DNA of 22,914 nucleotides, taken from IMG/VR virus record IMGVR_UViG_2703718780_000024, positions 1 through 22,914 of that record. One strand, 5' to 3'. A program made the translations under genes and the position numbers. Under the pieces are notes generated by a model. It ran no database searches. It worked only from the letters and a program-made list of their open reading frames with translations, and was not told the origin of the DNA. Source of the stretch: a virus. Taxonomy: Duplodnaviria > Heunggongvirae > Uroviricota > Caudoviricetes. Below are positions 13,565 to 15,673 of the stretch, piece by piece (within the stretch, counting starts at the first letter, position 1; the number at the start of each line of letters is the position of its first letter).

Positions 13565-14716
13565 ATGAATGTAATAGATTTGTTTTCTGGCGTTGGAGGT
13601 CTAAGTCTTGGTGCTGCACGTGCTGGATTTGATGTTAAAATGGCAGTTGAAATTGATCAACATGCTATTAATACTCACGCAATTAATTTTCCAAGAAGTT
13701 TGCACGTCCAAGAAGATGTTTCTTTACTAAATGCAGAAATAATTAAGGGTTTTTTTAAAAACGATATGCCCATAGATGGTATTATTGGCGGTCCTCCGTG
13801 CCAAGGATTTAGTTCAATAGGCAAGGGGAATCCTGATGATAGCAGGAATCAGCTTTACATGCATTTCTACCGTTTAGTATCAGAATTACAGCCATTATTC
13901 TTTTTGGCAGAAAATGTTCCAGGTATTATGCAAGAGAAATATTCTGGCATTAGAAATAAAGCATTTAATTTGGTTAGCGGTGATTATGATATTCTTGATC
14001 CCATCAAGGTAAAAGCATCTGATTATGGTGCTCCAACTATTCGAACTAGATATTTTTTTATCGGTGTAAAAAAATCATTGAAGCTTGATATTTCAGATGA
14101 AGTATTTATGCCTAAGATGATTGATCCGGTTACTGTAAAAGATGCTTTGTATGGATTACCAGATATTATCGATGCCAATTGGCAATCAGACTCTGAGAGT
14201 TGGCGAACAATTAAAAAAGATCGAAAAGGGGGATTTTATGAAAAATTATGGGGGCAGATCCCTCGGAATGTTGGTGATACAGAATCGATCGCTAAGTTAA
14301 AAAATAATATCATATCTGGATGTACCGGAACATTACATAGCAAAATCGTCCAAGAGCGTTATGCTTCCTTATCTTTTGGGGAAACTGATAAAATTTCAAG
14401 ATCTACAAGATTAGATCCAAATGGTTTTTGCCCGACTTTAAGGGCGGGAACCGCTAGAGATAAAGGAAGCTTTCAAGCCGTCAGGCCGATCCACCCTTAT
14501 CATCCAAGAGTGATTACACCAAGAGAAGCTGCTAGATTACAAGGCTTCCCTGATTGGTTTCGCTTTCATGTAACTAAATGGCATAGTTTCAGACAAATAG
14601 GAAATAGCGTGTCACCAATAGTTGCTGAATATATATTAAAGGGGCTGTACAATTTATTAAATAAAAGAGTACAGCCCGAATATTTAAACCATAATTCTTT
14701 GGAAGTTAGGGTATAA
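13565..14716 (+). CDS. DNA (cytosine-5)-methyltransferase, 383 aa
   Basis: Canonical C5-MTase motifs in order: motif I DLFSGVGG (aa 5-12), motif IV GGPPCQGFS (Cys79), motif VI ENV (aa 116-118), and C-terminal QIGNSVSP. The gene is AT-rich. Confidence 0.9.
   Translation: MNVIDLFSGVGGLSLGAARAGFDVKMAVEIDQHAINTHAINFPRSLHVQEDVSLLNAEIIKGFFKNDMPIDGIIGGPPCQGFSSIGKGNPDDSRNQLYMHFYRLVSELQPLFFLAENVPGIMQEKYSGIRNKAFNLVSGDYDILDPIKVKASDYGAPTIRTRYFFIGVKKSLKLDISDEVFMPKMIDPVTVKDALYGLPDIIDANWQSDSESWRTIKKDRKGGFYEKLWGQIPRNVGDTESIAKLKNNIISGCTGTLHSKIVQERYASLSFGETDKISRSTRLDPNGFCPTLRAGTARDKGSFQAVRPIHPYHPRVITPREAARLQGFPDWFRFHVTKWHSFRQIGNSVSPIVAEYILKGLYNLLNKRVQPEYLNHNSLEVRV
14642..14678 (-). terminator. Candidate intrinsic terminator for the minus-strand GHKL operon, embedded in the MTase 3' coding region
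   Basis: 9-bp stem GGGCTGTAC / GTACAGCCC (14642-14650 / 14670-14678) with a 19-nt loop. On the minus strand it is followed by a U-rich run (UUUAAUAUAU). Confidence 0.35.
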
Positions 14717-15673
14717 CCTATAGTATTTATAATAGTTATCCCGTTCATTTTCGTTTAAAGAGAACTCTTCAGCGGCTGCCTGATATGCTTCTTTATCAGG
14801 CAGTTTACTATCTAAATTTATCTTTTCTTTAATTGTTAGTGTTGGTATTGCTATTTCTTGCACGTCTTCCCAATTTGTTGAATAAAATTGCCAGTTAGAA
14901 AGGTCGCATGCCTTAGATAACTCTATATATTCTTGTTCTGAGGAGAAAAAACCTGATATTGTCAACATGGTATGACTGCCATCATTATATTGATTTAAGG
15001 ATAATGGGTAATACTGAATCTTATCCTTACGTCCTGAAAGACCACGTTCTATTGCTGATCTAAAAGCGTTTGTAATAATTCGTATTAAAAGAGCTTTAAT
15101 CTTACGATCTGAAAGATCTGCATTTGATATCTGAAGATTAAAATCAAGATACTTTTTCCCAAGCAATGATTTTAATGAATTAATAAAAGCTTCTTTAAAA
15201 ATATCTAAACTTTCTCCAACTCTACGTTGGTAATAAGAACTAGGATTTATGGGGAAGGTGACCTTCAAAATATCAAAAGAGCTTACTTTAGTACTTAGTA
15301 AGTGTATATCATCTAGATCCGTTTGTATTTTTTTCGGGGAGGCATAGTCTAACCATGTTATTGATGGTTTAGAAAAACTATAATCAAGAATAAAGTCATG
15401 AGCTGATATTAGCTTACAATCAATACAATTATAAGGCAAATTATATTTTTGTCTGATGTGAGTAGACTCTTGTTCTTCGAGAGAAATCATATCAGAAAGA
15501 GCGATACGATTATGCATGATTCTAAAATCTTCAAGCATCGGACCACCAAAACCTATATATGTATATTCTTGAATATTTAGTCTTTTGCTTAAGAGGTTTA
15601 GGCTTTCGAGAAAAATCTCTCTATCAATAGACTTATTATGCCTTAAGTGATAGGGAATGTATTGTCCAGACAT
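14684..15673 (-). CDS. Unknown-function protein, 329 aa, translationally coupled downstream of the GHKL ATPase; candidate effector or specificity subunit
   Basis: Its ATG (15673-15671) overlaps the GHKL stop TGA (15675-15673) as TGATG. The 3' end overlaps the convergent MTase by 33 bp. I see no recognisable motif by eye. Confidence 0.7.
   Translation of the reverse strand: MSGQYIPYHLRHNKSIDREIFLESLNLLSKRLNIQEYTYIGFGGPMLEDFRIMHNRIALSDMISLEEQESTHIRQKYNLPYNCIDCKLISAHDFILDYSFSKPSITWLDYASPKKIQTDLDDIHLLSTKVSSFDILKVTFPINPSSYYQRRVGESLDIFKEAFINSLKSLLGKKYLDFNLQISNADLSDRKIKALLIRIITNAFRSAIERGLSGRKDKIQYYPLSLNQYNDGSHTMLTISGFFSSEQEYIELSKACDLSNWQFYSTNWEDVQEIAIPTLTIKEKINLDSKLPDKEAYQAAAEEFSLNENERDNYYKYYRLYPNFQRIMV

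Follow-up and report, generated by a model that had tools for sequence, protein, structure and literature searches.

A methyltransferase-fold protein coupled to a MORC-type ATPase in a putative restriction-modification-like cassette

What does a protein do whose gene starts on the stop codon of a GHKL ATPase gene and converges with the gene of a C5 DNA cytosine methyltransferase (C5 methylase)? Such a gene, for a protein of 329 amino acids (aa), lies in the tailed-phage record IMGVR_UViG_2703718780_000024 of IMG/VR, of which we analyzed positions 1 to 22,914 (hereafter the window, 22,914 nucleotides (nt) in length). An initial annotation had placed the gene in probable co-expression and complex with the GHKL protein, had recognized no catalytic or DNA-binding motif by eye, and had named it the most likely place for an effector, a nuclease, or for a specificity determinant. 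That proposal is partly supported here: the coupling to the GHKL gene stands, whereas the nuclease effector and the supposed lack of a motif do not. We find with near certainty that the protein is the methyltransferase-fold subunit of a MORC-ATPase pair. The gene itself, its fold and cofactor positions, the MORC identity of the ATPase, the strict pairing of the two genes, their linkage to the methylase and to Vsr, and the lack of a recurrent nuclease gene around them are direct observations, described below. What the pair does is a matter of more tentative argument, which follows them.

A methyltransferase-fold protein and its MORC partner

The target protein matches the Pfam family PF20553 (Methyltransf_35) from end to end, with residues 1–328 aligned to profile positions 1–308 of 309 (300.4 bits against a cut-off of 27, E 2e-89), and the same domain was carried by all 57 homologues (57/57) found in a word-indexed search. 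It also matches PHROG 19983, a group whose function is not named (E 1.7e-154). An exhaustive profile search yielded 2127 family clusters at 50% identity; the best 150 of these are stand-alone proteins of ~330 aa, with no fusion to, or replacement by, a nuclease domain. The target gene carries the annotation ‘O-methyltransferase’ in 173 complete Escherichia coli genomes (RefSeq WP_000016656.1), a name that derives from the label ‘putative O-methyltransferase’ of PF20553. That name is only a prediction, and its ‘O-’ part is neither backed nor contradicted by our data. Scanning the target against NCBIfam gave no match, and PADLOC-DB v2.0.0, searched at E up to 1, returned 0 families for the target and 0 for the GHKL protein; the methylase alone has a match there (MTase_II).

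An AlphaFold2 model of the target, built on 31 homologues (pLDDT 90.4, pTM 0.88), contains five strand-helix units, a helical insert at residues ~144–219, a hairpin of strands 6 and 7, and a C-terminal helical domain of ~85 residues. The resulting seven-stranded, Rossmann-like sheet ending in the strand 6-strand 7 hairpin is the hallmark of the class-I S-adenosylmethionine (SAM) methyltransferases, and two fold searches with the model returned methyltransferases only. Its closest structural neighbors are the RNA methyltransferases Trm1, RsmD, RlmI/RlmO, RlmJ, TlyA, and RlmM. The closest solved structures (Trm1, RsmD, RlmI/RlmO, RlmJ) share just 7–14% sequence identity with the target, which, unlike them, has an N-terminal YHLRxNKxxxR motif of its own, the variable helical insert, and the C-terminal helical domain.

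The motifs that the initial annotation had missed are visible by eye and conserved: motif I, Y-I-G-F-G-G-P (39–45), the acidic E66, and W-L-D-Y (107–110). Motif I (Y39-I-G41-F-G43-G44-P45) directly follows strand 38–42, and among 79 family sequences from many phyla its glycines are kept in 73/79 (G41), 76/79 (G43), and 69/79 (G44). E66, at the end of strand 2 (61–66), is present in 78 of the 79; an acidic residue at this place of the fold binds the ribose of the cofactor. At the end of strand 4 (104–109), in the position of motif IV, D109 is found in 79/79, within W107-x-D109 and followed by Y or F at 110. Farther along the chain, position 137 of strand 5 is always K or R and T139 is conserved, and strand 6 bears a conserved Y229-x-D231 in which D231 is invariant. 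The N-terminal motif Y-H-L-R-x-N-K-x-x-x-R is likewise conserved in these sequences. In a still wider set, the invariant residues are R11, K14, R18, Y39, R74, W107, D109, T139, D231, P277, and E283, and the glycine loop, E66, and D109 are retained across >12 phyla. The cofactor-site positions of the PF20553 family are thus canonical and conserved, and from sequence and model together the target is, near certainly, a class-I SAM-methyltransferase-fold protein for which SAM binding and methyl transfer are predicted.

Sequence profiles reach less far than the fold. When profiles of 31 and of 73 family members were compared with all PDB sequences, only chance-level matches to HMG-CoA synthase, or none, were obtained, and when the family profile was compared by hhalign with hand-entered sequences of the E. 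coli proteins RrmJ and RlmJ, no alignment was obtained. We assume a resemblance of the N-terminal motif to RlmJ, and K14, D109, K/R137, and D231 have an order and spacing that we likewise take to resemble the K-D-K-E tetrad of 2′-O-ribose methyltransferases.

The GHKL protein encoded directly upstream is a MORC ATPase. Its ATP-binding boxes are intact (D34..N38, D75xGxG79, and G106xxG109xG111), as is the lysine K325 of its S5 domain, and it contains the segment G269-W-T-V-I-C-N-D-R277-V-V; each of these positions is conserved in at least 95% of 78 sequences. Because that segment fits the pattern GhXhhpXXRhl, the partner falls within the MORC family as defined by Iyer et al., 2008, with GHKL and S5 domains, the MORC motif, and a basic S5 residue all present. 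Its tail carries a conserved KPxLPxP followed by a strand-helix-helix (beta-alpha-alpha) pattern, which may correspond to a ribbon-helix-helix-like DNA-binding unit.

Composition, coupling, and mobility of the cassette

To describe the setting of the family we used 186 loci: 80 genome loci, taken from one-genome-per-species contigs, 51 viral contigs, and 55 metagenome loci of a divergent clade. The genome loci span cyanobacteria, Proteobacteria, Firmicutes, Acidobacteria, Verrucomicrobia, Chloroflexi, Latescibacteria, Poribacteria, and others. A MORC gene lies directly upstream of the PF20553 gene in 78/80 genome loci, the exceptions being a contig end and a frameshifted MORC gene (locus L032), and in 50/51 viral contigs, with another contig end as the one exception; all of the 55 metagenome loci that have upstream sequence show the same arrangement. 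Stop and start codons overlap in 61/77 genome loci (56 as ATGA), and a further 13 pairs are spaced by at most 6 nt, giving 74/77 in total. Divergence of PF20553 correlates with that of MORC (Spearman rho 0.46) and far less with that of the methylase (0.13). The co-expression and probable complex proposed at the outset agree with this pairing, overlap, and correlation, and we conclude that PF20553 probably always works with a MORC-type GHKL+S5 ATPase, to which it is translationally coupled and with which a physical complex is predicted.

Two grounds for rejecting the proposal had been named with it. One was a lack of co-conservation with the GHKL gene, and here the opposite clearly holds, as the pair is kept in practically all loci. 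The other was confident homology to a non-defense family; this formally applies through the match to PF20553, yet PF20553 is the same GHKL-coupled orthologous group, with a function that is only predicted, and so refutes nothing.

The third component is the C5 methylase, by which the cassette presumably marks self DNA; its catalytic Cys lies in the motif PCQ, and the PDB entry 3G7U is assigned to it. It occurs in 67/80 genome loci (directly adjacent in 55) and in 49/51 viral loci, so that a cognate methylase, as in a type II-like restriction-modification system, usually accompanies the pair; in the window it overlaps the 3′ end of the target gene. The order methylase-MORC-PF20553 is co-directional in 31 loci, and in 26 the pair is convergent with the methylase, as in the window. 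Vsr is encoded in 27/80 genome loci, in 1/51 viral loci, and nowhere in the window; in several loci, for example L016, L025, L062, and L093, it stands directly upstream of MORC or downstream of PF20553. By eye, a HhH-GPD (endonuclease III-like) glycosylase is encoded in three Vsr-less loci (L077 2708–3421, L078 306–1019, and L089 3–554), where its open reading frame (ORF) adjoins or overlaps the start of the C5 methylase gene; it is possibly an alternative for the repair of 5-methylcytosine deamination.

No extra recurrent gene emerged when all other ORFs of the 80 genome loci were clustered and 145 neighbor ORFs were scanned with Pfam. The commonest addition, a family of HNH-like ORFs, occurs in 6/80 loci (Pfam HNH_2 in three and HNH_5 in two of the scanned neighbors), and a search for HNH in the 55 metagenome loci gave 0 matches. 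No recurrent nuclease gene therefore surrounds the pair as it would in a type II-like system, and no superfamily II (SF-II) helicase of the kind linked to MORC-associated systems recurs either, with ResIII/DEAD matches in 2 of 74 neighbor ORFs from half of the loci. The remaining neighbors are housekeeping, phage, integrase, and conjugation genes. With no further recurrent neighbor, the cassette is self-contained and mobile, and its three genes travel as a unit.

Two further variations in composition were seen. A second, distantly related GHKL protein is encoded in 10/80 genome loci. In eight of them (L029 7061–8824, L030 7602–9347, L033 1021–2853, L034 8385–10076, L038 2837–4477, L040 8246–9964, L046 195–1892, and L050 5640–7397) it measures 540–610 aa and stands beside the C5 methylase, in addition to the MORC-PF20553 pair. 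The three that were scanned with Pfam matched HATPase_c_3 only, and this protein may be the ‘paraMORC1’ whose co-occurrence with MORC and methylases is described by Iyer et al., 2008. In a Rhodoferax metagenome-assembled genome (L026 4616–11709), a single C5 methylase has a MORC-PF20553 pair on either side, the two pairs being divergent. A weak HNH_5 ORF (8661–9461; 22 bits, below the Pfam cut-off) comes after the second pair; in no other locus seen did a nuclease-like gene stand between PF20553 and the methylase.

The coordinates of the cassette in the window are collected in Table 1. The target ORF is confirmed as real, and so is its start on the GHKL stop codon, with one base common to both; the gene lies on the minus strand, which the initial annotation had left unstated. 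The minus-strand junction of the two genes reads ...GAAGAGGTGAAGTGATGTCT... and includes a Shine-Dalgarno-like hexamer that may act in translation initiation of the target gene. The ORF listing also offers a 330-aa version from an in-frame GTG at 15676; we prefer the 329-aa call because all of the homologues in alignment A1 (31/31) begin, with M-(S)-S/A-G, at the position of the target ATG.

Table 1. Features of the MORC-PF20553-methylase cassette in the window
Feature	Position	Strand	Remarks
PF20553 target gene	14684..15673	-	329 aa; ATG 15673-15671, stop codon 14686-14684
GHKL gene	15673..17064	-	MORC-type GHKL+S5 ATPase, 463 aa; directly upstream of target gene; conserved C-terminal extension
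C5 DNA cytosine methyltransferase gene	13565..14716	+	383 aa; convergent with target gene
Stop/start overlap TGATG	15671..15675	-	GHKL TGA 15675-15673 and target ATG 15673-15671; base 15673 common
Shine-Dalgarno-like GAGGTG	15679..15684	-	5 nt upstream of target ATG, within GHKL coding end; sequence reading
Overlap of 3′ ends, target and methylase genes	14684..14716	both	33 nt, convergent; from ORF coordinates
Promoter-like TTGACT-16-TAAAAT	17117..17144	-	~50 nt upstream of GHKL ATG; 10/12 matches; lead only
Promoter-like TTAAAA-18-TATAAT with extended TG	13503..13532	+	~30 nt upstream of methylase ATG; lead only

The convergent overlap leaves no space for a terminator between the target and methylase genes, so the transcript of each gene runs into the other. 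Similar convergent overlaps of 30–50 nt recur across enterobacterial and prophage loci (for example L031, L036, L039, L041, and L099–L149). They may have a regulatory role, such as transcriptional interference, and could set the ratio of methylase to pair. The two promoter-like sites in Table 1 are given as leads because a promoter and terminator scan of the region yielded no more sites than expected from shuffled sequence.

In the window the cassette forms a low-GC island (GC 0.32–0.36 against ~0.5 in the flanks) and is cargo of a lambdoid prophage, with replication genes on one side and late genes on the other. Its position in lambdoid prophages is between the replication genes and DUF1367/antiterminator Q, with an equivalent position in Yersinia prophages. 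In P2-like prophages it was seen in the gap between gene A and the portal gene, which we take to be the tin/old hotspot of P2. In the Pseudomonas filamentous phage PfAC20 (a Pf phage) it lies at the accessory end, where it had been scored merely as an ‘incomplete’ system, a lone cytosine methylase (PMC11878078). Beyond phages the cassette is also common in chromosomal sites, on conjugative elements, and by conjugative-transfer genes: it occupies an integrase island in Pseudomonas, adjoins gyrB and a ScoMcrA-like gene in Ralstonia, and adjoins HsdR and AAA_15/21 genes in a Gemmatimonadetes genome.

The remainder of the window (1–13000 and 17500–22914) consists of a Rac-like lambdoid prophage, in which comparison with strain PA20 identifies recE/recT, ralR, kilR, sieB, a ydaS/ydaT-type immunity region, and replication genes. 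These are followed by DUF1367/DUF1364/DUF1133, a TerB-family gene, and a SASA-family carbohydrate esterase (20475–22412), after which come the lysis genes. Two prophage tRNA genes lie downstream of the antiterminator region on the plus strand (19144–19219 and 19320–19396). One has the anticodon CAT, called Met by ARAGORN and tRNA-Ile by RefSeq and presumably lysidine-modified, and the other is a tRNA-Arg with the anticodon TCT.

How the cassette may act

Read from its gene content, the pair together with the C5 methylase, and elsewhere often Vsr, would make up a compact, horizontally mobile, restriction-modification-like cassette without a recognizable DNA-cutting enzyme, and the best reading of PF20553 is that of a putative SAM-binding subunit of its non-methylase arm. 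That the MORC-PF20553 pair is an interference arm without a canonical nuclease, with a putative function in defense, is the reading that we put forward, tentatively, as a serious possibility that falls somewhat short of probable. In such an arm, the C5 methylase would mark resident DNA, as its gene family and frequent Vsr companion suggest. The MORC ATPase, following the precedent of MORC proteins, MutL, and topoisomerases, would dimerize upon ATP binding and clamp or loop DNA. PF20553 would ride on the MORC protein, bind SAM, and engage nucleic acid, where it might either check the modification of a site or methylate the unmarked nucleic acid of an invader. Unmodified incoming DNA would finally be blocked without a canonical endonuclease, by a logic comparable to that of BREX. 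In a more specific version, which we consider possible but rather unlikely, the MORC clamp would load on DNA that lacks the 5-methylcytosine of the cassette, and PF20553 would either modify the invader, or a host RNA, with a methyl group that blocks or damages it, or fix the clamp in a locked state that leaves the DNA compacted and silenced.

The linkage to the methylase and Vsr, the strict pairing, and the placement of the cassette on mobile elements and at sites typical of defense genes speak for an interference arm. A pattern of decay also bears on it. In three cases the pair has decayed beside an intact, adjacent methylase, through a frameshift in MORC (L032 4126–5353) or in PF20553 (L148 5995–6988 and L193 1892–2885). 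Loss of the pair with retention of the methylase is the pattern expected for a costly restriction arm, although it was seen in three cases only.

Other observations weigh against a restriction function or limit what can be built upon it. The catalytic-base position of the MORC protein is an Asp (D34) rather than the usual Glu. The ribbon-helix-helix reading of its tail comes from a secondary-structure pattern, and nothing was found for it by a Pfam scan (last 142 residues of MORC) or by a profile search of the PDB (last 65). As there is no nuclease, a restriction outcome is purely an inference, and a modification-only or regulatory module would give the same gene order; from the lack of a match in PADLOC v2 or NCBIfam it follows only that the family is not known as a defense system. 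Each step of the proposed mechanism draws on sequence, a structural model, and analogy. There are also eight uncut genome loci (six cyanobacterial, together with L052 and L069) in which the pair is intact and no C5 methylase lies within 6 kb, which is awkward because a pair toxic to unmethylated DNA would need a methylase acting in trans. Finally, PF20553, with its variable helical insert, evolves fastest of the three proteins, its median pairwise identity of 0.31 being lower than those of MORC (0.43) and the methylase (0.47). This cannot be explained by tracking of methylase specificity, since the methylases are one family: at ≥45% identity, 57/66 linked methylases cluster together, and their target-recognition region has no gaps. 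For the same reason, no specificity variation that PF20553 could track is visible, and co-variation with the methylase neither supports nor refutes the suggestion that PF20553 is a specificity determinant.

The methylase-less cyanobacterial loci (L018 and L020–L024) come from Scytonema, Nostoc, and relatives, and in L018, L020, and L024 the pair is inserted between genes for NDH-1/Mrp-type antiporter subunits (Proton_antipo_M).

Several other explanations have to be weighed against an interference arm. PF20553 could be a second, ATP-assisted methyltransferase that marks DNA or RNA beside the C5 methylase, with no restriction activity, in a cassette that serves epigenetic marking or the self-protection of a mobile element against host restriction. 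The fold and its conserved cofactor-site positions, the lack of any nuclease, and the cyanobacterial pairs that persist without a linked C5 methylase or signs of decay would all suit such a role, and the prophage regions concerned are ones where orphan methylases are common, the PfAC20 cassette itself being given as a lone cytosine methylase (PMC11878078). Modification alone, however, leaves unexplained why a methylase should need an obligate MORC clamp; moreover, hardly any viral copy has Vsr (1/51), the cassette is also frequent in non-phage chromosomal sites and on conjugative elements, and in L032, L148, and L193 decay has struck the pair but spared the methylase, as when a costly restriction arm is lost. 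We regard it as unlikely. An abortive-infection toxin seems to us more doubtful again: the MORC protein would sense unmodified foreign DNA and free or activate PF20553, which would methylate host rRNA or tRNA, on a base or a 2′-O-ribose, and stop translation. RNA methyltransferases are indeed the nearest structures (Trm1, RsmD, RlmI/RlmO, RlmJ, TlyA, and RlmM), many conserved residues are basic (R11, K14, R18, and R74), the assumed likeness of K14, D109, K/R137, and D231 to the K-D-K-E tetrad would fit, and both Pfam and RefSeq name the family an O-methyltransferase; yet hhalign against the hand-entered RrmJ and RlmJ sequences gave nothing, and the close association with a DNA methylase and Vsr suggests that it is DNA that is discriminated, with which an RNA effector step is still compatible. 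We know of no precedent for a methyltransferase toxin, which also counts against it.

The strict one-to-one pairing and co-divergence with MORC could reflect an adaptor or regulator, catalytically silent or protein-methylating, that tunes the MORC ATPase or the C5 methylase in the manner of DNMT3L with DNMT3A or of CheR. The proline-rich KPxLPxP in the MORC tail offers a possible docking site, and there is a known parallel, also linked to a C5 methylase, in which a GHKL protein is paired with a small Rossmann-like ‘response regulator’ (PMC8011034). Retention of the glycine loop, E66, and D109 in >12 phyla, however, speaks for a working cofactor site rather than a dead scaffold, and we give this explanation only a small chance. 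That PF20553 itself cuts unmethylated DNA is very improbable: it does occupy the position of an ‘R’ gene in a cassette with no other nuclease, and restriction enzymes of unexpected fold exist, but its fold is that of a canonical seven-stranded SAM methyltransferase, the conserved acidic E66 and D109 sit at standard cofactor-site positions, neither Pfam nor PADLOC matched it to a nuclease family, and in the best 150 of the 2127 clusters no nuclease domain is fused to it or replaces it. A nuclease identity was accordingly rejected after scans of Pfam, NCBIfam, and PADLOC and the two fold searches, with no sign of a PD-(D/E)xK, HNH, GIY-YIG, or PLD enzyme. Just as improbable is an accessory role in repair, with PF20553 as helper of a MutL-like MORC that stimulates Vsr at the T:G mismatches left by 5-methylcytosine deamination. 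MutL stimulates Vsr in E. coli, Vsr stands beside the pair in several loci (L016, L025, L062, and L093 among them), and in three loci an HhH-GPD-like glycosylase, recognized by eye, replaces it; but 53/80 genome loci, 50/51 viral loci, and the window lack Vsr, and the methyltransferase fold would be left without a role.

Relation to known systems and implications

An in silico study predicted a role for MORC and paraMORC ATPases in restriction-modification operons that also encode cytosine methylases and Vsr (Iyer, Abhiman and Aravind, 2008; PMC2292703), and noted a minority of MORC neighborhoods with methylases and no helicase. Those systems and the present cassette are alike in their GHKL and S5 domains, the MORC-specific motif, the link to a cytosine methylase and Vsr, and a patchy distribution on mobile elements. 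They differ in their partners, which in the main text are SF-II helicases, nucleases of the restriction-endonuclease fold, HNH or HKD nucleases, and TIR domains, whereas here helicase and nuclease are lacking and the sole invariant partner is a methyltransferase-fold protein, a kind of MORC partner that the main text does not describe.

A cassette reported in 2021 from comparative genomics only combines a cytosine methylase, a GHKL protein (HATPase_c_3), a small Rossmann-like partner, and frequently Vsr (PMC8011034). It differs in an added HEF_HK domain and second HATPase_c domain and in a receiver-like rather than methyltransferase partner, and the proteins of the present cassette had no match to those Pfam families. 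In GHKL-Shedu (paraMORC3; VcSduA of Vibrio cholerae) anti-phage activity has been demonstrated, with a modeled dimeric clamp that controls the effector (PMC12137116). That system works without a methylase and carries its effector as a fused PD-(D/E)xK nuclease (DUF4263), while the cassette described here has a separate methyltransferase-fold candidate and a linked C5 methylase. The likeness to BREX, and to other methylation-based defense systems in which no nuclease has been identified, is one of logic. In BREX, a methylase marks self, ATPase-containing partners stop unmodified DNA without a recognized endonuclease, and a methyltransferase-fold protein, PglX, belongs to the defense arm. The proteins are unrelated (no PADLOC match), and the cassette has three genes against six or more, C5-cytosine in place of N6-adenine methylation, and a MORC ATPase.

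In the literature searched (by the PF20553 name, accessions, bacterial MORC, PfAC20, and CP-933R) we found no functional study of the cassette or the family, and a 2025 review of restriction-modification biology makes no mention of GHKL or MORC. A MORC ATPase with a methyltransferase-fold partner and no nuclease is named in Pfam and RefSeq, and no functional description of it was found in that literature. We also know of no tested defense system whose effector arm consists of a MORC ATPase and a methyltransferase-fold protein.

Should it indeed act in restriction of unmethylated DNA, the cassette would be an immune system of three genes and no nuclease. With ~2100 clusters at 50% identity in many phyla, the family is found on prophages, on filamentous Pf phage, and near conjugative-transfer genes, where defense finders score a lone ‘orphan’ methylase. 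If PF20553 were only a second modification enzyme, it would be, to our knowledge, the first case of a methyltransferase that obligately needs a MORC clamp. The interest of the cassette lies in its wide distribution, its lack of a nuclease, its homology link to eukaryotic MORC and SMCHD1, and the fact that it can be tested directly in E. coli. Should the interference reading hold, its copy in an E. coli O157:H7 prophage would offer a tractable bacterial model for MORC-type ATPases that read or act on DNA methylation, a question shared with eukaryotic MORC and SMCHD1, and a clamp that silences DNA lacking the mark of the cassette would be a bacterial forerunner of the link between these eukaryotic proteins and DNA-methylation-dependent silencing.

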